The notes: generated by a model from the sequence alone, not told the origin. A DNA stretch of 11,888 bases from a virus (IMGVR_UViG_2896601577_000007); one strand, 5' to 3'. Counted from the stretch's first letter, positions 2,334 to 11,888 are shown. Numbers and translations: made by a program.

Positions 2334-3890
2334 CTACACGGTGAACCTGTTCCCATAGTCGGCAGGAATAAGACTGCGCCAGCGGGCTTCACAGTCACGA
2401 ACGGTATCAATGGCCTGCTGCTGGTGGCCTGCAAGCCATCTGATCCACTCCCGCCCGGCAGCGCCGTGATTGCTCTGCCACGCGGATTTTAATGCGTCTG
2501 CATGGTCTTTCCCTGTCTGGTGCTCATGAAAGCGCACCGCCTTACTTAACGGGATATTCAGCAGGCGCACCAGTTGCCCCGCTTTTGTCTTGCGTCCTGC
2601 GGAGGCAATGAACGTTTCTAAATCCATTTCCCCGGTGCTGATTGCCACGGTACGCCAGCGTTTTAGATCCCGATTTCCGCCTTCTTTCGCGCCCTGCAAT
2701 TTCCCTACGCCGTTAAACAGGGCATAGGCAGACTGAGAAACGCTTATCGGGTCTGCGCCCTGTCCGACTTCATCCAGCGGCATCAGTCCGTCATTGTGGG
2801 CGGCGGCCTCGTTTATCATCCCCAGCGCCGTCCCGTACCACGTCAGGCGCAAGGCATCAGGGTTCCCGTATAGACTGCTAGCCACGTTCTGCGTGGTTGT
2901 TTTCCCGGCGCTCGATTGCTCATAAAAATGAATCCCGAATCCGTCACGCTCTGCCACCCCGATTAATGGCGCTGCCAGTGCTGCGGCAATGCCTGTCATC
3001 ATCGCGTAGTTGCCGTATGCCAGCCGCGCGACACTGTTGCGCCAGCTTTCCGGCGTTCCTGCTACGGTATACCCGGCAGCGGCTGAACTGCGCCCGCTGA
3101 ACAAAACAGGCCGCTCAGGTGTGCCGATGATTTCCCCGTCCGGCATGATGTATGCCCCGCACTGCCAGCCTGTAGCATGAGCAACGCGCCACAATTCACG
3201 CGAGCCGCTCCGCTGTAGCCAGTCGGCAAGGATCGCCCGTAAACTGCTTTTGGTCGTGACGTTAACCCCACCAGCTTTCAGGGTGCGCCAGCCTTCACGC
3301 TCGCCAATATCAGCCAGCGGGATAGCCGCTGTTGTCGGTATGCCTGCACCGAATGCCAGCCATGAGATAATAAGATACTGATCTTTGTCGTCGCGTCCCG
3401 TGCCGATAACCTCCAACGGGGAACATAACCAGCTTTCAGCGTTGACGATCTCCCCGCTTTCCTTGTCCACCTTCGGCGTTACCCAGAAAACGCCATCTTT
3501 GCGGCTCTCAATGTGGGGTTTTAGTGGATCTTTCTCTGGATGGTCAGTTTTACCGCCCTCAATGGCTTGCAATCGCGGTTTCACGGCTTCCCCTTGAATC
3601 TGGTACATCGAATCGTTAAACGCAGCCGTAGCGACTTCCAGCCCGTTTTGCTGGCGGTAATCGTCCCAGTCGGCTTTGTAGTCTGTCGGCGGCAGCGCCA
3701 CCCAGCCAGCCACGGATAAGGCGGCTTTCTCTGCGGCATCTTTGCCCGTGTTCGCCTGGTCGTCCTGCTGGTGGTCGTTATCTGCGGCAATGATAATCTG
3801 CGTGGCTGGATATATCCGGCGCATCACTTCGGCAACGGGTAGCAGGTTGCCCGCGTCAATTGCTGCCACTGCCAGCGCGTCCGGGCGCAT
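2334..3890 (-). CDS. Primase/helicase central fragment: distal TOPRIM (DxD) plus P-loop region (DUF927-like)
   Basis: IIIAADNDHQ (TOPRIM DxD) 37 aa after the annotated Met, and a Walker-A-like SSAGKTTT. Its ATG overlaps the stop of the upstream fragment (TGATG). The frame upstream of the Met encodes LATALSVHL, which continues the TOPRIM motif. Confidence 0.85.
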   Translation of the reverse strand: MRPDALAVAAIDAGNLLPVAEVMRRIYPATQIIIAADNDHQQDDQANTGKDAAEKAALSVAGWVALPPTDYKADWDDYRQQNGLEVATAAFNDSMYQIQGEAVKPRLQAIEGGKTDHPEKDPLKPHIESRKDGVFWVTPKVDKESGEIVNAESWLCSPLEVIGTGRDDKDQYLIISWLAFGAGIPTTAAIPLADIGEREGWRTLKAGGVNVTTKSSLRAILADWLQRSGSRELWRVAHATGWQCGAYIMPDGEIIGTPERPVLFSGRSSAAAGYTVAGTPESWRNSVARLAYGNYAMMTGIAAALAAPLIGVAERDGFGIHFYEQSSAGKTTTQNVASSLYGNPDALRLTWYGTALGMINEAAAHNDGLMPLDEVGQGADPISVSQSAYALFNGVGKLQGAKEGGNRDLKRWRTVAISTGEMDLETFIASAGRKTKAGQLVRLLNIPLSKAVRFHEHQTGKDHADALKSAWQSNHGAAGREWIRWLAGHQQQAIDTVRDCEARWRSLIPADYGNRFTV

Positions 3891-4597
3891 CAGGTGAACT
3901 GAAAGGGCCGTCGCCAGCCCTCGGCAATTAAAACGCTCTGCGGCGATTCTGGCGCGTTTACGGCGTGATATGCCCCGCGCTTTGCTGAACCTGTCAGGAG
4001 TCGCTTCTCTCCCTGCGGTGTAATGGTTTGCGCTGCTGCCACTGCGCCGGATTCGTCCACCAGCTCCAGCAATAACGAACCATCCGGCATAACCGGATAG
4101 TTAAACCCGGTCAGCCCTTTTGATTGCAGGTAATCAGATTCGCCCTGTGTGGCACTCTGGCGCATTCCGGCATACAGATGGGCAAACGTAGCCCTTCGCT
4201 GCTCTGCGTCCTCTGCTGCCTGTTTCTGGCGCTCCTGCTCACGCTGCTGGCGGTCAGCTTCCAGTTGCTCTCTTCTATGGCTCGCTGCCGCCGGGTCGGT
4301 TTGCGCTGCCCGGTAATCAATACCCAGCACGTCAGCGGCAAGCTGTGCCGCCTCCGTGGTGTCGCAGTTGTTTACCCGCTTGATTAAATCCAGCCCGTCA
4401 CCAGCGCCACACTGGTTGCAGATAAAGCTACCGCGCCCGTTGTCGTCGAATCTGAAACGGTCTTTTCCACCACATGCAGGGCATGGAGAATGGCGGCGCG
4501 ATGAATCAGGCACGTCGATAGACAATTCAGCCAGCACATAAGGCCAGCGCCCTGCTGCGGCGCTGGTCACTTCGCGGATAAGGTCGATATTACGCAT
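3890..4597 (-). CDS. Primase N-terminal fragment: Zn-ribbon plus start of TOPRIM (catalytic Glu)
   Basis: CPACGGKDRFRFDDNGRGSFICNQCGAGDGLDLI is a P4 alpha-type primase zinc-binding motif; the fragment ends ...SVLIAEG then WRRPFQFT*. ATG at 4597 is preceded by AGGAGG; the track ORF extends to 4630. Confidence 0.85.
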   Translation of the reverse strand: MRNIDLIREVTSAAAGRWPYVLAELSIDVPDSSRRHSPCPACGGKDRFRFDDNGRGSFICNQCGAGDGLDLIKRVNNCDTTEAAQLAADVLGIDYRAAQTDPAAASHRREQLEADRQQREQERQKQAAEDAEQRRATFAHLYAGMRQSATQGESDYLQSKGLTGFNYPVMPDGSLLLELVDESGAVAAAQTITPQGEKRLLTGSAKRGAYHAVNAPESPQSVLIAEGWRRPFQFT

Positions 4598-4666
4598 GGT
4601 TGCCTCCTGCCACGGTCGCGCCCATATCATTAATCATGCTTTGCCATATCTCGCGCCCGATGTCAG

Positions 4667-6206: not shown

Positions 6207-6417
6207 TGGTTGCCCCCCGTTTTCCTGACATTTCGCCACCTTCCAGCAGGAAATGAACGTCACGAACGGCGAGATCCAATATCGCGAGTAACGCCTTCAG
6301 TTTTTCGTCTCGTGAGGGAGAGTTGCTCACCAGAATGTCATTAATCACTTCTGTCAGTGTGATGATCTGGCTTGTGCGTTCGAGGGGATCCATATGCACA
6401 TCGTAGGTTTTAATCAT
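6199..6417 (-). CDS. Hypothetical small protein (72 aa)
   Basis: ATG at 6417 preceded by GGAGGTG; overlaps the stop of the first operon gene by 8 nt; the track ORF extends to 6507. Confidence 0.6.
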   Translation of the reverse strand: MIKTYDVHMDPLERTSQIITLTEVINDILVSNSPSRDEKLKALLAILDLAVRDVHFLLEGGEMSGKRGATNE

Positions 6418-6604
6418 GTGCCACCTCCATGCGGATACGACCAGCAAAAAAGCAGACGTGATCGCGCACCAGAGAACGGCGAGCATCGCGTTCAGACTCG
6501 GCAGCAATATGATGAATTTTGGCGGTAATTGTCGGGCAATCGCGGCGAACTGCGGCGATAATCCAGATAAATTGCGGTTTTTGGGTAGGGGTAGTAGCCA
6601 GCAT
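6410..6604 (-). CDS. Hypothetical small protein (64 aa), first gene of the small-gene operon
   Basis: ATG at 6604 with AAGGAGG (rc of 6613..6619) 8 nt upstream (MLATTPTQKPQFIWIIAAVRRD...). This is the 3' end of the track ORF 6410..7165, which I do not accept as a single CDS. Confidence 0.6.
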   Translation of the reverse strand: MLATTPTQKPQFIWIIAAVRRDCPTITAKIHHIAAESERDARRSLVRDHVCFFAGRIRMEVAHD

Positions 6605-6631
6605 AGCGGCAGCCTCCTTTGTGTTTAAGGA

Positions 6632-6670
6632 GTCACCGCCTGAGTTTCCACGCTCTGAAATGGCGGTGAC
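6632..6670 (-). promoter_or_regulatory. 9-bp-stem hairpin in the 5' leader, just upstream of the Shine-Dalgarno sequence of the first operon gene
   Basis: GTCACCGCC (6632..6640) and GGCGGTGAC (6662..6670) are perfect inverted repeats around a 21-nt loop; a 5-bp stem with UUCG loop on the minus-strand RNA lies at 6711..6724. Confidence 0.35.
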
Positions 6671-6793
6671 GTTAGCAGGGGTGGAAATACCGGACACAAA
6701 GGAAACCGGCCTACGCGAACGTAGCCCCACTAACGCCACCATTGATACAGTACGGACTAGGCCGCTGATTTGATGTGCGTAGTGATCGGACAC

Positions 6794-6816
6794 AAAAAAA
6801 GACGCTTTCGGCGTCT
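6794..6816 (-). terminator. Intrinsic-terminator-like hairpin followed by a U-run (minus strand)
   Basis: Minus-strand RNA reads AGACGC-CGAAA-GCGUCU followed by UUUUUU (plus-strand A-run 6794..6799). Confidence 0.5.
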
Positions 6817-7103
6817 GTGTCGCCCTGAGTGTGTTCGGGTTTCCACGCCCGGTTGCTGATTTTGCAGCAACGCTTGGACTATAACAGCTTTTCTCTGCTA
6901 GGTGGTCATACCAGATAAAACCGTAACCCTTTAAGAGTTTTTCCTGTGCACGGCTCACCATCTTTTTGTTGAGGGTAAGCGCCTCGCGTACTGGTAACGG
7001 AACTCCGGGCGCTGCGGTATCAATATCAGGTTTTATAAGGTTGTAAGGGTTAACATTTGTTAACAGGCCAGCCAGATTAAAGGCTTCTTTCTGGGCGGCA
7101 GGT

Positions 7104-7286
7104 TCATTCAGTATCACGGCGCACCTCCACGAACTCATTAACGAATCTCTCCAAAGGCTGAACACATGGCGACTGATAGCCCTCGCGGTAAAAGGTCACT
7201 CGGTTATGCTCGACGCGCTCAACGGTCACTACAGCCCCGTGCGAATCCTTGTAACGGCTTCCCGGCATCGGATTGTGGTTACGCAT
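7104..7286 (-). CDS. Hypothetical small protein (60 aa)
   Basis: GGAGG 5 nt upstream of ATG 7286; overlaps the stop of the upstream 50-aa ORF by 8 nt. Confidence 0.55.
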   Translation of the reverse strand: MRNHNPMPGSRYKDSHGAVVTVERVEHNRVTFYREGYQSPCVQPLERFVNEFVEVRRDTE

Positions 7287-7470: not shown

Positions 7471-8088
7471 TCACTGCTTCGCCGTCATGCCACCCAGCAC
7501 GATACGGGCGATCATGTTGCTCTCGTTGCTGTAGTGGCGCTGCTGCGTCGTTTTGCCCATCTCGGCACGGGCCATATTCAGCGCATCGCACATTGGCTTA
7601 AAGTTGTTTGCGGCACTGAGACGGGCTTTTAGCTGGCGACGATAGCGGGCGGCGATTTCAGGCACGCTACGCTGTAATTCTTCCTCGCACTGGATGAAAT
7701 AACGGCGGATAGCGCGGCCCTGCTCGTTGCGTTCAACCATTGCCACTTCTTTAGCCATATCCAGCGATAGCAGGTAATCATGCTCTATTTGCTGGCGAGT
7801 TTTTGCGCTCGCCCGTTTTGGCGTGCTCAAATTTTCAACACGGATAAAATCGGTTCCGGCAATAAAACCGTACTGGTCAATTCGGCCTTTAATCCAGTTA
7901 GTAAAGTCGCGGCCCACCCCCAGCGCTTTATGCAACGCCTTAGCGCTCACAATATTGGCTTCACGCCCGCCAATGCGTCCGGCAATAACGGGAACAATAG
8001 CGGCAAAGTCGTTGCCGTTAATTACTCCCGTGTTAACGTTGGGTTGCGGGGCGGCCCCCGAACTGAATCGGCTTTTTTCGATAGTCAT
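7471..8088 (-). CDS. Phage antirepressor-like protein (AntA-type N-terminal domain)
   Basis: VSAKALHKALGVGRDFTNWIKGRIDQYGFIAGTDFI resembles the AntA/antirepressor motif. ATG 8088 is preceded by GGAG; the track ORF extends to 8148 and would overlap the upstream gene. Confidence 0.7.
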   Translation of the reverse strand: MTIEKSRFSSGAAPQPNVNTGVINGNDFAAIVPVIAGRIGGREANIVSAKALHKALGVGRDFTNWIKGRIDQYGFIAGTDFIRVENLSTPKRASAKTRQQIEHDYLLSLDMAKEVAMVERNEQGRAIRRYFIQCEEELQRSVPEIAARYRRQLKARLSAANNFKPMCDALNMARAEMGKTTQQRHYSNESNMIARIVLGGMTAKQ

Positions 8089-8101
8089 ATTTTCGGCTCC
8101 G

Positions 8102-8533
8102 TTATGCGGCGGTGAGATTGTCCGGGTATAGATTGAGAATGTCGGCAATTTCAGGCTGAGAAAGTCCCTGATAGCCGCCAGCGTCGGCGTTATGGTTCAC
8201 AAGCCGAATAACTTTTAGAACGTCACCGCGCCCGGTAAAGCGATAGCGTAAATGTGGCCCTATCCCGTCGGGGTTCTTTTCGTCTATACGCTCAAGCTGA
8301 ATATCAAGCCTGCGCTCTAACTCGCTGGCGTAGTTCCTTCCAGACGAAAGGCGGCAATAACGCAGAATGTCATTTTCTGTCCATCCCTCTATACCAGTAC
8401 GCAGCATATAGACTCTGGCACGATGCTTTTTCGGTGTGCGCTTTGGTGCTTGAAGGGATTTTGTAAGGGGCGTAACATCAGATACGCGAATATCTGAATT
8501 AGCCGCCTGTAATGGGCGGTTTTTCTTTTCCAT
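8102..8533 (-). CDS. Hypothetical protein (143 aa), translationally coupled to alpA
   Basis: Its start shares one nucleotide with the alpA stop (TGATG). Confidence 0.6.
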   Translation of the reverse strand: MEKKNRPLQAANSDIRVSDVTPLTKSLQAPKRTPKKHRARVYMLRTGIEGWTENDILRYCRLSSGRNYASELERRLDIQLERIDEKNPDGIGPHLRYRFTGRGDVLKVIRLVNHNADAGGYQGLSQPEIADILNLYPDNLTAA

Positions 8534-8736
8534 CAGGCCACCTTCCCGCGGCGTTCTGCCAGCCAGTTGTGAATCTCAACCGCATCAAACGCAGTTATTT
8601 TTTCTCCCAGCTTTACCGGACGTGGTAGTGAACCGTTTCTTACTTTACGGTCGATGGTGGATACACTAACGCCCAGCAATTCAGCCAGGCGGAAGCGTCT
8701 GATATAGCCTTTTGTAGGGATAGTGTCGATGTTCAT
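8533..8736 (-). CDS. alpA: AlpA/Vis-family helix-turn-helix transcriptional regulator
   Basis: 67 aa; RFRLAELLGVSVSTIDRKVRNGSLPRPVKLGEKITAFDAVEIHNWL is a typical AlpA (P4 Vis / CP4-57 AlpA) signature. Confidence 0.9.
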   Translation of the reverse strand: MNIDTIPTKGYIRRFRLAELLGVSVSTIDRKVRNGSLPRPVKLGEKITAFDAVEIHNWLAERRGKVA

Positions 8737-8822
8737 GATTCCCGTAACCTCTTAGCGATAGTTGTTGCTTCGTTACGGGGATTTAATGGCGTGCACGCTC
8801 AAAAAGGAATGATCGTATTTTT

Positions 8823-8860
8823 TACTATCGTGATAGTAAAATTTACTATCACCTTTTTTT
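8823..8860 (+). promoter_or_regulatory. Operator-like TACTATC half-sites (two direct, one inverted) forming a hairpin followed by T7 (plus-oriented terminator-like)
   Basis: TACTATC at 8823 and 8844, inverted GATAGTA at 8832; stem GTGATAGT/ACTATCAC (8830..8837 / 8845..8852) followed by TTTTTTT 8854..8860. It lies about 90 nt upstream of the alpA start and overlaps the stop of the 126-aa ORF. Confidence 0.4.
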
Positions 8861-9229
8861 CCCTGCCGTGGTGCGTTCTTCCGGTGTTCTGTCTGCGTCG
8901 GCTATGAGTTTCTTCAGGTAATCTATGGATGGCTCATCATAGCCGCCCCCCAAAAGCGCCCAGTGGTTTATTGTGGCGTTCGCCCATGCTTCGTTGGTTT
9001 CCTTCCCGTTCTTCCCTTTACACTCTTCTGGGTAGTGCCGCTTCACATAAATCAACGCCAAGAGGCAAATTTCGCGCTTTTGCCTGTGGCGCTCTCTGTT
9101 TCCGTGCTCAACGTTTTTAACATCCTCATAAAGAGCTTGTAAGTTTATGCGAGTTTCGGGGCTGTATATGGGCTGGTTTTTGTCCATGCATTCGCCGATA
9201 TATTCAACCCACGGCCTTGTTATGTACAA
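8849..9229 (-). CDS. Hypothetical protein (126 aa, TTG start in track); possibly the frameshifted 3' part of the IS1-disrupted cargo gene
   Basis: ORF in AT-richer DNA with no recognised motif; weak start signals; the frame is open upstream to 9346, overlapping the end of the cargo gene. Confidence 0.45.
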   Translation of the reverse strand: MYITRPWVEYIGECMDKNQPIYSPETRINLQALYEDVKNVEHGNRERHRQKREICLLALIYVKRHYPEECKGKNGKETNEAWANATINHWALLGGGYDEPSIDYLKKLIADADRTPEERTTAGKKR

Positions 9230-9234
9230 ATCCT

Positions 9235-9401
9235 CTACGGATATTTCGTGGAAGGCATGTTTTGTATAATCGAGAAAAAATAATAATTCGCACTTACGTC
9301 TAGTTCTCTTTTTCTGTGTGCGGGGCTGAATATGCGTGCGGGAGTGTCAATAGAATCAAGCCCTGCGATGTCGAGTATATAGGAGGCGTTAACATGCCAT
9401 A
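9235..9401 (-). pseudogene. 3' part of the integrase-proximal cargo gene interrupted by IS1
   Basis: Same reading frame as 10179..10473 once IS1 and one target-site duplication copy (777 nt) are removed; the reconstructed ORF is 153 aa. Confidence 0.6.
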
Positions 9402-9410
9402 GCCCAAGCA
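9402..9410. repeat. IS1 target-site duplication, left copy (GCCCAAGCA)
   Basis: Identical 9-mer directly flanks both IS1 ends. Confidence 0.85.
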
Positions 9411-9465
9411 GGTAATGCTGCCAACTTACTGATTTAGTGTATGATGGTGATTTTAAGGTGCTTGC

Positions 9466-9741
9466 GTGGCTTCCATTTCCATCAGATGTCCTTCCTGCTC
9501 CGCTACTGAAGGCGTGGTGCGTAACGGCAAAAGCACTGCCGGACATCAGCGCTATCTCTGCTCTCATTGCCGTAAAACATGGCAACTACAGTTCACTTAC
9601 ACCGCCTCTCAGCCCGGTACGCACCAGAAAATCATTGATATGGCCATGAATGGCGTCGGATGTCGCGCCAGTGCACGCATTATGGGCGTTGGCCTCAACA
9701 CGGTTTTACGTCACTTAAAAAACTCAGGCCGCAGTCGGTAA
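9466..9741 (+). CDS. insA: IS1 InsA (91 aa, GTG start)
   Basis: [66 protein letters not shown]... closely matches IS1 InsA. Confidence 0.9.
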
Positions 9742-10163
9742 CCTCGCGCATACAACCGGGCAGTGATGTGATTGTCTGCGCTGAAATGGACGAACAGTGG
9801 GGCTACGTCGGTGCTAAATCACGTCAGCGCTGGCTGTTTTACGCGTATGACAGGATACGGAGGAGGGTTGTGGCGCACGTCTTCGGTGAACGCACTCTGG
9901 CCACACTGGAGCGTCTTCTGAGCCTGCTGTCGGCCTTTGAGGTCGTGGTATGGATGACGGATGGCTGGCCGCTGTATGAATCACGCCTGAAGGGAAAGCT
10001 GCACGTTATCAGCAAGCGTTACACTCAGCGCATTGAGCGACATAATCTGAATCTGAGACAACATCTGGCAAGGCTGGGACGGAAGTCACTGTCGTTCTCA
10101 AAATCGGTGGAGCTGCATGACAAGGTCATCGGGCATTATCTGAACATAAAACACTATCAGTAA
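9660..10163 (+). CDS. insB: IS1 InsB (167 aa), transposase catalytic part
   Basis: ...[58 protein letters not shown]...[13 protein letters not shown] matches IS1 InsB with several substitutions. Confidence 0.9.
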
Positions 10164-10178
10164 GTTGGAGTCATTACC

Positions 10179-10187
10179 GCCCAAGCA
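10179..10187. repeat. IS1 target-site duplication, right copy (GCCCAAGCA)
   Basis: Identical to 9402..9410. Confidence 0.85.
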
Positions 10188-10473
10188 CATGGCAATCTAT
10201 ATGATTTACAACGCCTGCCTTAAAGCTTTTTTCGTCCTCTACTTCAGTGATTATGTCGGCAAGTAACAAGCAGTCGTCTTTGACGTCTGGGAATAAAGAG
10301 CAATTGCGATAAAGACTCGCGATGCTATGTAATGTGCCGTCGTAGCCGCAAAGGTACGCGCTCAAATATATAGATTCTGCCGCCGCCATAATCAAAAGAT
10401 CATCAATATCTATTTCTAATAATTCGGCTGCTCTGTTAAGCCTGAAAAAAGGGGCGGGTGGTAATTTTTTCAT
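10179..10473 (-). pseudogene. 5' part of the integrase-proximal cargo gene interrupted by IS1
   Basis: ATG 10473 preceded by AAGGTGA; 98 codons, then the frame runs into the IS1 right end. AT-richer than the rest of the element by eye. No recognised motif (MKKLPPAPFFRLNRAAELLEIDIDDLLIMAAAES...). Confidence 0.65.
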
Positions 10474-10505
10474 TGCGTCACCTTTTACGCTGCGCCTTAT
10501 TTTGT

Positions 10506-10561
10506 GATTGAGCCAGGCGGTAAGGCTTCCCGCTTTTCGCCCCGTCGAGCTAGGCTCAATC
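10506..10561. repeat. 9-bp inverted repeat GATTGAGCC / GGCTCAATC separated by 38 nt, between the int stop and the cargo gene start
   Basis: Perfect 9-bp arms at 10506..10514 and 10553..10561; no flanking U-run on either strand. Confidence 0.4.
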
Positions 10562-10568
10562 TATTCAG

Positions 10569-11828
10569 TTAGTTCGCCCTTCTGAGAGGCGTTACGTTGT
10601 AGTCTTTTCCGCTTTCCAGTGCCACTAGCAGATCAGCCCACTGTGCCAGTGCTGCTTTACGCTCATCAAAATACTGATGGCGGTTATAAATCCCCTCTAC
10701 GCCCTTAATGCGATGATTGAGGCATCGTTCCGCCACAACAGGATCAACACCCAACGCTGCTAAATGAGTACGTGCGGTGCGTCGAAAGTCGTGAATCGTG
10801 AAATTAGGCACATCCGGCATTTCGGCGCGAACCTTAGCCAGTGCTACGGGTAAAGTGCTTTCCTGAATATGTGGGATCATTCTGTTTTGCATCTTCCTGG
10901 CCGGAAGCACCCATGCGCTATTACATGAAAAGGTGTGTAGCTCTCTCAACCATTCAACGGCTGGGGAAGGTAGAGGTATATCAATAGGGTCTCCGTTTTT
11001 GCTGCGTTCTTCCGGCAAATGCCATACCGCACCATCTAAATCAAACTCTTCCCATCGTGCGGCGCATAATTCCATTTTGCGGACGCATAACGCTAACAGT
11101 AATTTGAACGTGATTTCGTTCTGGCGACTGAATCCCTTAGCCGTGCGCATGGCTTTGAATAGCTGGATTAACTCATCGCGGGTTAACCAGCGGTCACGGG
11201 CAGCTTCTTTCCCTCCGGCGTCTGCCACCTCAAAGGCTGAACAGGGGTTAATCTCTAGCGCGTGCCGTTTGATTCCGTAGTCGAATATGCGGCGCGTCCA
11301 TCTCAGCACGTCCGTTGCTATGGTCGGCGCTCCACGGTCAACAATACCTTTCAGCATGTCATCGATATGGCGCGGTTTCACGTCCTCTACCTTCATGCTG
11401 CCAATGCAGGGGTTTATATCTTTGTCGATACGGCGGCGGAGTATATCGGGGTGCTTCCAGCGCGGGAGGATCTGACGCTCAAAGTATTCAGCGGCAAGCT
11501 CTGAAACGCGCATAGCGTTCTTCTCTGCTTCCATCTTCGCCAGTGCTTCGGTTTTGTGCTTCTGCTTCTCTCCTGCAACGTCATAGCCCAGCGCAACGCG
11601 AGCCGATAGCTCTTTGGCTGTCTCTCTGGCCTTTGATAGTGATAGCTCGCTATACGAACCAATTAGCATGGCGCGGGACTTCCCTGCGAGTTTATAGCGG
11701 AATCTCCATGTGGGGGTTTTGTCGGCTTCACGGTAACGTAGGTATAAACCGTTACCGTCTGCCCGCCCCTCGAATCGCTCTCCGCTCTTAATCCATGCGC
11801 GGATCTGCATGTCTGTTAGTTTTGGCAT
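10569..11828 (-). CDS. int: P4-type tyrosine integrase (site-specific recombinase)
   Basis: 419 aa from MPKLTDMQIRAWIKSG...; N-terminal P4-like arm-binding region (GNGLYLRYR...WRFRYK) and C-terminal catalytic region (HDFRRTARTH...LNH...IYNRHQY). The track ORF extends 20 codons further to the window edge. Confidence 0.95.
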   Translation of the reverse strand: MPKLTDMQIRAWIKSGERFEGRADGNGLYLRYREADKTPTWRFRYKLAGKSRAMLIGSYSELSLSKARETAKELSARVALGYDVAGEKQKHKTEALAKMEAEKNAMRVSELAAEYFERQILPRWKHPDILRRRIDKDINPCIGSMKVEDVKPRHIDDMLKGIVDRGAPTIATDVLRWTRRIFDYGIKRHALEINPCSAFEVADAGGKEAARDRWLTRDELIQLFKAMRTAKGFSRQNEITFKLLLALCVRKMELCAARWEEFDLDGAVWHLPEERSKNGDPIDIPLPSPAVEWLRELHTFSCNSAWVLPARKMQNRMIPHIQESTLPVALAKVRAEMPDVPNFTIHDFRRTARTHLAALGVDPVVAERCLNHRIKGVEGIYNRHQYFDERKAALAQWADLLVALESGKDYNVTPLRRAN

Positions 11829-11858
11829 TTTGCGAATATCCAAACTTTGAATAGGGGG

Positions 11859-11882
11859 TGTACCCAAAGCAATGTACCCAAA
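11859..11882. repeat. Direct repeat TGTACCCAAA x2 (14-bp spacing) upstream of the int start
   Basis: Copies at 11859..11868 and 11873..11882, in the int 5' region at the window edge. Confidence 0.35.
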
Positions 11883-11888
11883 CCTCAT

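Follow-up and report, generated by a model that had tools for sequence, protein, structure and literature searches.

The alpA promoters of Gram-negative phage-inducible chromosomal islands (PICIs) stay silent until a helper phage induces the island, and the inducer is still being sought; in EcCICFT073, AlpA activates its own promoter (PMC6092414, PMC11773190). Induction of these islands is independent of the SOS response (PMC6092414). In the literature that could be read, no definition was found of the cis elements of the EcCICFT073 or EcCIMP1 alpA promoters. The region considered here is positions 8737-8860 (124 bp) of an 11,888-bp stretch of viral DNA (IMGVR_UViG_2896601577_000007), hereafter the window, meaning the whole stretch that was analysed. 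It holds the control sequences that act in cis on alpA, which is the master switch of a phage satellite. The minus strand is the coding strand for all genes around it, and a gene here called X lies between the integrase gene int and alpA.

The organization of the region is best described by a composite model, judged to be somewhat on the probable side, that joins dyad operators, a promoter (PalpA) and a fold-back leader stem. A dimeric DNA-binding protein would occupy two tandem palindromes, O1 and O2, two helical turns apart and with the proximal site touching the -35 hexamer; bound at about -46 and about -67, it would control the entry of RNA polymerase at PalpA. The leader stem (8779-8772 with 8748-8741) would bury the segment that separates the Shine-Dalgarno sequence from the AUG. 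As transcription from PalpA is predicted to begin within the 5' arm, only transcripts entering from upstream would form the stem: mRNA made from PalpA would lack that arm and stay open, and int-X read-through transcripts, carrying both arms, would be translationally silenced. This fold-back logic is drawn by analogy with IS10 and, taken by itself, is a serious possibility that leans slightly towards doubt. The features on which the model is built are as follows.

8832-8850: O2, the distal palindrome, GATAGTA-AAATT-TACTATC, 0 mismatches
8811-8829: O1, the proximal palindrome, GATCGTA-TTTTT-TACTATC, 1 mismatch, ending 1 bp from the proposed -35
8809-8804, minus strand: proposed PalpA -35, TTCCTT (TTCACT, TTCACA or TTCAAA in same-type relatives)
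8786-8781, minus strand: proposed PalpA -10, TTAAAT
8774, minus strand: predicted alpA start, at about A8774, 7 nt past the -10 and inside the 5' arm
8772-8779, minus strand: 5' arm of the leader stem, RNA CCCGUAAC
8753-8748, minus strand: Shine-Dalgarno sequence AAGAGG
8741-8748, minus strand: 3' arm of the leader stem, RNA GUUACGGG, between the Shine-Dalgarno sequence and the alpA ATG
8736-8734, minus strand: alpA ATG
8533-8736, minus strand: alpA, 67 aa, the regulated gene (Pfam Phage_AlpA / HTH_17)

EcCICFT073 and EcCIMP1 are elements of the same kind and order, with int and alpA co-oriented and followed by a Bro/immunity-RNA zone and a primase. In them, too, alpA is the master switch and its promoter, helper-induced and autoactivated (PMC6092414, PMC11773190), is the point of induction, of which PalpA in the window is the functional counterpart. 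EcCICFT073 (L265 8161-8525) differs, however, in having another alpA allele and in being without X, the leader stem and the dyads; the different allele and the lack of X led to its rejection as an experimental anchor, and K-12 CP4-57 was set aside as one because its yfjH is on the other strand. The int-alpA spacer of EcCICFT073 (L265 8185-8250, CFT073) holds, downstream of int, six decamers ending ACAAC(G/A) in 10-bp phase, and GACACAA repeats are located near alpA, so that its cis elements are arranged differently from those of the window family.

Parallels to the individual parts are found elsewhere. In phage lambda, OR1 and OR2 are tandem operators next to the weak promoter PRM. The dyads of the window likewise are two palindromes of one half-site family a few turns of the helix apart, and the proximal one would abut the -35 of a predicted weak promoter. 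They are, however, set 21 bp apart as against 24 in lambda, O1 would be centred at about -46 (-42 in lambda), and there is no divergent promoter or third site. For the leader, the model is fold-back inhibition of transposase translation in IS10/Tn10, reportedly described by Davis, Simons and Kleckner in 1985. In IS10 the 5' arm of the stem is upstream of the element's own start, such that only transcripts entering from outside are silenced. The window shares a stem that covers the ribosome-binding region and a 5' arm that would lie upstream of the start; it differs in that the gene is a satellite regulator, the outside transcription would come from the element's own int-X operon, and the start is a predicted one.

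In P4, the late promoter PLL precedes vis, the alpA homologue (layout in PMC10111431). P2 Cox or P4 Delta activates this promoter, and Vis represses it. PalpA is also the counterpart of PLL, in that the promoter of the alpA/vis gene opens the satellite's lytic operon and is where the helper exerts its control, with a CI/C4-type immunity RNA downstream (6659-6884 in the window); the differences are that PLL is divergent from Psid, int is not adjacent, the Cox boxes are direct repeats, and P4 is without an X gene or dyads of this kind. The Stl proteins are the master repressors of Staphylococcus aureus pathogenicity islands (PMC6092414). Should X read the dyads, it would resemble Stl as an island regulator adjoining int with DNA-binding and variable, possibly phage-sensing, parts, and in controlling the lytic operon of the island; it nevertheless matches Stl neither in sequence nor in family, runs in the direction of the operon instead of diverging from it, and is dispensable for maintenance in the window. 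Each mechanism is of a known kind, namely tandem operators by a weak promoter and a ribosome-binding-site stem with fold-back logic. In the literature that could be searched, no description was found of this combination before a PICI master switch, of the cassette structure set out below, or of the X family.

Tandem dyads and the cassette that carries them

The heptamer TACTATC occurs three times within 28 bp, at 8823-8829 (plus), 8832-8838 (minus) and 8844-8850 (plus), and nowhere else in the window, where 0.65 copies would be expected. An earlier reading of the sequence, referred to here as the original prediction, had placed three half-sites at these positions with the direct copies 21 bp apart; both statements are borne out, and a repeat search returned a 20-nt direct repeat at 21-bp spacing. 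A fourth half-site with one mismatch, GATCGTA at 8811-8817, had been overlooked. The four build two tandem 19-bp palindromes of the form GATnGTA-N5-TACnATC, the centres of which are 21 bp apart, and O2 contains the stop codon of X (TGA, 8851-8849, minus strand). The repeat search also recovered an inverted repeat of 11 nt without mismatches (8830-8840/8842-8852) and, around it, a dyad of 29 nt (8801-8829/8832-8860). When 3 mismatches are allowed, GATAGTA-N5-TACTATC is expected in 0.18 copies, and two copies were seen in 0 of 200 shuffles.

For comparison, 139 alpA loci of the family were gathered from E. coli genomes, a set with one genome per species, viral contigs and metagenomes, membership being defined by the AlpA motif ...GEKITAFDAVEI...; the hosts are Escherichia, Shigella, Enterobacter, Leclercia, Citrobacter, Tatumella and Erwinia. 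Seven cassettes are of the same type as that of the window, one of them from a Tatumella with an AlpA 62% identical. In these, all four half-sites keep GAT..TA (consensus GATnnTA) and the two middle positions vary; the dyad spacers are A/T-rich and 4-5 nt long, and the period of 21-22 bp is retained. The dyads are therefore kept in related elements, the absence of the motifs from which had been named in advance as counter-evidence. Across the seven, invariant columns concentrate in the half-sites, the -35 and the -10, and the promoter spacer varies.

The layout recurs with other sequences. Among 52 distinct cassettes, 20 have significant direct repetition at 18-25 nt, with the mode at exactly 21, and 28 have significant dyads (about 2.6 expected in each case, p<=0.05). 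Each cassette has its own repeat sequence and reuses one half-site in both of its sites: L224 carries GGTAGAGT-N6-ACTCTACC twice, and others carry CGGAATTAT-G-ATAATTCCG followed by GGGAGTT..AACTCC, GTGAG..CTCAC twice, or TCGCAACGAAAA..TTTTCGTTGCGA. In related cassettes the proximal repeat always abuts the proposed -35. As half-site reuse, whole-turn spacing and position fit recognition by a protein and not a hairpin, the dyads are likely to be protein-binding sites, predicted to form an operator array. The suggestion that they are a repressor operator fares well in its first half, given tandem palindromes two helical turns apart that are conserved and a layout that recurs. As for its second half, the geometry (O1 and O2 centred at about -46 and -67 relative to a start at 8774) and the poor -35 favour activation, with repression also possible.

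The dyads belong to a larger exchangeable unit, which includes part of gene X. In the window this gene is interrupted.

8849-10473, minus strand: gene X, between int and alpA, encoding 282 aa in the intact relative L131/P0005
9411-10178: IS1 within gene X (768 bp, 99.6% identical to IS1F)
9402-9410 and 10179-10187: 9-bp target duplication of IS1, TGCTTGGGC
9275-9280, minus strand: second lesion in X, a -1 frameshift with T6 in place of the T7 of L131

The relative L131 is collinear with the window apart from IS1, is 97-99.7% identical to it and has an intact X. The nearest named X protein is from Shigella boydii, and Pfam, NCBIfam, PHROGs and PDB sequences gave no match by which X could be assigned to a family. 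Word-indexed protein searches gave 4 and 6 X relatives only, and for this reason the AlphaFold models, which show two folded parts, rest on very shallow alignments of 5-6 sequences. X proteins (L001-L263) are about 210-335 aa long; they have the N-terminal motif IPxLEYCxLxRAAxLLxCxxxDLxH in common, their middle is hypervariable, and their C-termini fall into about 8-9 alternative classes.

As judged from the aligned loci, the exchanged cassette is the X C-terminal domain (the last ~90 codons) together with the two dyads and the promoter. On the right it is bounded by the 5' arm of the leader stem. Similarity between the window type and L003/L004 stops at -43, and a query starting at 8690 is matched by 114 E. 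coli genomes over its first 88-90 bases only; these genomes are 95-99% identical to the window from alpA to the 5' arm (~8779/8780) and unrelated thereafter. The left boundary can fall inside X, at the start of the last ~100 codons, as seen in L259 and L217: beginning at the X start codon these show 100% identity as far as about -440, counted from the alpA ATG, and are then unrelated until about -40. Dyad type tracks the class to which the X C-terminus belongs, not the N-terminal helix-turn-helix (HTH)-like motif, and the leader stem is inherited with alpA and not with the upstream cassette. In place of the two dyads, 3-4 direct repeats are present in the two types of cassette that have no X. 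In these X-less relatives (L143, L248, with repeats at about -130 to -60 from alpA, L156 and L246), int is directly upstream, and the repeats, TTTCAATAGATT or TTTCAATGGAAAT, have a 19-21-bp period.

Since the dyads, the promoter and the X C-terminal domain form one exchangeable cassette, this domain is the leading candidate for the protein that reads the dyads, although the proposal is a tentative one. A fuller version, unlikely as it stands, would make X the helper-sensing master regulator of this large satellite family, in which an N-terminal winged HTH and a hypervariable sensor are joined to a swappable C-terminal winged-helix domain that reads the pair of dyads just behind the stop codon of X and switches alpA on or off. 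The fold-back stem would prevent translation of alpA from read-through transcripts, and the C-terminal domain, dyads and promoter would serve as a portable specificity cassette exchanged among satellites. The N-terminal HTH itself was rejected as the reader because identical N-termini occur with different dyads (L259/L217 and L006/L225).

The main alternative to X is a helper-phage protein, and more broadly it may be that the helper or AlpA reads the dyads, cassette diversity being an adaptation to different helpers and the dyads the helper's switch element for alpA; this, too, is doubtful. The model for helper-read dyads is the activation of the P4 PLL promoter by P2 Cox. Site centres at about -46 and -67 would suit an activator, and X is inactivated in the window without loss of the sites. 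In addition, PICI alpA promoters are induced by the helper and not by SOS, and the EcCICFT073 AlpA autoactivates (PMC6092414, PMC11773190). AlpA was rejected as the reader, however, as the identical protein WP_001090781.1 stands behind window-type dyads in L002 and unrelated dyads in L004, and in L005 and L006 AlpAs that share 96% identity with the AlpA of the window stand behind yet other dyads. For operator sharing with a helper, BLAST of 8790-8870 against 50,697 phage records returned chance matches only; at least 120 viral-contig loci carry an exact GATAGTA-N5-TACTATC, but their scatter is chance-like, and no second full site 21 bp away was present among the matches listed. The X-less cassettes also speak against helper or AlpA in having direct repeats rather than dyads. 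Two familiar boxes were considered and rejected. L003-type sites read CTG-N8-CAG and not the CTG-N10-CAG of a LexA box, the window sites are without CTG..CAG, and PICI induction is SOS-independent; the P2 Ogr/P4 Delta box TGT-N12-ACA is absent from 8737-8860, as determined by reading the sequence.

The proposed alpA promoter and its competitors

The position of PalpA was derived from 39 distinct upstream cassettes anchored on the 5' arm of the leader stem. One base upstream of this arm is a TWnAAT hexamer, of which the last T is present in 31 of the 39 and A at the two positions before it in 27 and 23. Agreement with TTGACA is greatest when the spacer is exactly 17 bp (mean 2.54, compared to about 1.5 elsewhere) and reaches at least 4/6 in 10 cassettes, for example ATGACA-17-CATGAT and TTCACA-17-TTAAAT. 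In the seven same-type cassettes the dyads, ATTCA(C) and TTAAAT are conserved; as the 17-18 nt between the last two are conserved in length only, this is the usual footprint of a promoter. A weak sigma-70-type PalpA is thus predicted, and its placement is considered rather probable.

A different placement would put a real promoter within the dyads, which would then act as a repressor operator over it. The -35 would be TTTACT (8840-8835) in O2 and the -10 TACGAT (8817-8812) in O1, with a start at about 8805, so that the stem would be present in every alpA mRNA as a constitutive or conditional brake on translation. Both hexamers match at 4/6 and are separated by 17 bp, A2 and T6 of the -10 are canonical, TACnnT recurs in the proximal half-site of all same-type cassettes, and the strong conservation of the stem is easiest to understand if it is part of the main mRNA. 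The recurrence of TACnnT is, however, uninformative, as it follows from the half-site consensus (GTA/TAC). Moreover, the -35 is poor in L253, L149 and the Tatumella cassette, the TWnAAT hexamer and the 17-bp peak of the -35 across unrelated cassettes are left unexplained, and this promoter, like PalpA, is below the threshold of the sigma-70 scan. A repressor operator of this kind is accordingly regarded as unlikely.

Less probable again is that the dyads are an RNA element, that is, an intrinsic and possibly bidirectional terminator or 3' stabiliser of int-X, and/or the end of an antisense transcript. A stem followed by seven Ts on the plus strand, opposite to the neighbouring genes, is present as originally described: the terminator scan found 10 pairs (3 G-C) at 8830-8852 and then CTTTTTTT, the T7 run being at 8854-8860, with a free energy of -10.8 kcal/mol for stem and T7. 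On both strands, 8801-8860 folds as one long AU-rich hairpin between A/U runs (-17.9 and -15.9 kcal/mol on the two strands, z about -5), and canonical GC-rich minus-strand terminators occupy the same place in L003, L004 and L142-type cassettes. The stems of the window are nonetheless almost pure A-U, and the L001-type copies have 1-2 mismatches per 7-bp stem; hairpins would also need no fourfold reuse of a half-site, retention of GAT..TA, A/T-rich loops or a 21-bp period. Read on the minus strand, the T7 run is AAA AAA and encodes Lys-Lys in the X C-terminus ...TTAGKKR, and relatives have at its position TTTCTTCTTT (a broken run), CACTTTGCC, CCCTTACC or unrelated sequence. A sigma-70 consensus scan of 8400-9300 gave no promoter-like site on either strand. 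The short antisense transcript that had been proposed to end at the T7 was rejected on these grounds: the run encodes lysines of X, is interrupted or absent in every relative, and has no plus-strand promoter-like site to serve it. Some termination of int-X transcripts at 8801-8860 is possible.

Another plus-strand terminator-like site is present at 8501-8530, where AGCCGCCTGTAATGGGCGGTT is followed by TTTCTTTTCC. It is G+C-rich, unlike the dyad stem, and falls within the first codons of a 143-aa open reading frame (ORF) that overlaps the alpA stop codon.

The alpA leader stem

The original prediction had described a pairing in the alpA leader that could control translation. The inverted repeat exists, one base to the left of where it had been placed: on the plus strand its arms are CCCGTAAC at 8741-8748 and GTTACGGG at 8772-8779. 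AAGAGG is at the 3' end of the loop and adjoins the stem, with only its last G, the first base of the 3' arm, being paired. The minus-strand RNA leader folds at -14.0 kcal/mol (z = -3.2), and an RNA beginning at 8774 is unstructured, with an open centroid in folding.

Covariation was examined in 47 distinct leaders from the alpA family. The 8-bp stem is paired in 91.7% of cells, four of the eight pairs covary, and 22 cells are changed on both sides; these statistics were reached by 0 of 500 shuffles, and slid controls are 27-40% paired. Compensated arms replace CCCGTAAC/GTTACGGG with CCCATAAC/GTTATGGG, CTCGTAAC/GTTACGAG, CCTGTAAC/GTTACAGG or CCCCTAAC/GTTAGGGG, and G.U intermediates occur, as in L208, which has G.U where L259 has A-U. 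In one sub-family (L228, L174, L145, L182, L156 and others) the stem is extended loopwards, GUAACUUC/GGAGUUAC, such that the whole Shine-Dalgarno sequence is paired. The Tatumella and Erwinia leaders (L008/L183 and L009) have an extra inner hairpin, GCCGC-AUAUC-GCGGC, within the loop of the conserved stem.

The repeat is read as RNA pairing and not as a DNA palindrome, given compensated arms before near-identical AlpAs, the G.U intermediates and the extension that buries the Shine-Dalgarno sequence. An RNA stem controlling alpA translation is accordingly predicted, and of the parts of the region this one is proposed with good confidence. The translational-control element of the original prediction thus gains strongly from covariation, although it would act mainly on read-through transcripts, the start being likely inside the 5' arm. 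That the repeat acts instead as DNA, a split palindromic site over the start with half-sites 31 bp apart that might serve, for instance, AlpA autoregulation, would agree with its inheritance with alpA rather than the upstream cassette, with a 5' arm outside the mRNA under the favoured promoter and with coordinated arm changes that also preserve a DNA palindrome, but is quite improbable, as near-identical AlpAs stand behind CCCGTAAC/GTTACGGG and CTCGTAAC/GTTACGAG, G.U intermediates occur, and pairing over the Shine-Dalgarno GGAG in one sub-family makes sense for RNA only.

Several observations weigh against the composite model as a whole. With regard to PalpA, the second position of the -10 is T and not the near-invariant A, in the window as in about 46% of cassettes, the -35 of the window matches at 2/6 only, the sigma-70 consensus scan of 8400-9300 does not find the promoter, and a second candidate (TTTACT, 17 bp, TACGAT) is present in the dyads. 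With regard to the dyads, 8801-8860 can fold as one long hairpin on both strands, GC-rich terminators are found at the same place in other cassettes, and X is doubly inactivated in the window, yet the dyads downstream of it are intact. The link between the X C-terminus and the dyads may be one of plain physical linkage, and the N-terminal HTH-like motif does not follow dyad type. In the leader, the excess of G.U over A.C on the sense strand is modest (15 vs 9). Finally, the alpA region of EcCICFT073, which has been studied by experiment, shares no homology with the one considered here. Overall, the features are judged to be real and functional, and about two-thirds of the interpretation given in the original prediction stands.

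The satellite and the meaning of its switch region

The window, in sum, contains int, an IS1-broken X, alpA, antA, the C4/isrK RNAs, a primase and a single-stranded DNA-binding protein (SSB). Gram-negative PICIs have a described four-zone layout (PMC10111431), and the satellite is assigned to this type because its gene order fits that layout: Pfam and Rfam matches show int, alpA and the primase in one orientation, and between them a Bro/immunity-RNA zone. Features outside the switch region are as follows.

10569-11888, minus strand: tyrosine integrase gene, int (Pfam)
10494-10560, minus strand: int-alpA RNA motif, RF02996 (Rfam, 60.6 bits, E 8e-11)
7471-8148, minus strand: AntA/Bro-type protein, antA (Pfam)
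6659-6884, minus strand: isrK, c4-a1b1 target and C4 antisense RNA (Rfam)
3890-4630: split primase, Zn-ribbon part (Pfam)
2334-3890: split primase, Toprim/DUF927 part (Pfam)
1031-1465: SSB (Pfam)

Ash was also matched by Pfam downstream of alpA. The region 6659-6884 is an RNA immunity module of the P1/P4 type, located downstream of alpA and antA. The isrK, a1b1 target and C4 models fall within the called 'Ash' ORF (6410-7165), and the true ash start codon is probably located after the C4 RNA. The int-alpA RNA motif is between the int stop and the X start and does not adjoin alpA. An Rfam scan at E<=1 placed no family, RF02996 included, at 8737-8860, and comparison by eye found no complementarity between the int-alpA RNA and the alpA leader.

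What published work has established is limited to a response of the alpA promoter to the helper and to AlpA, and how a helper switches a PICI on is still being sought (PMC6092414). For a widespread alpA family, the present analysis names cis elements that can be mutated: two dyads abutting a predicted -35, the promoter itself and a covarying stem. It also offers a candidate regulator in X and a design rule, in which a swappable cassette is combined with insulation of the master switch against read-through. If true, this would explain how the island is silent although int, X and alpA can be co-transcribed.

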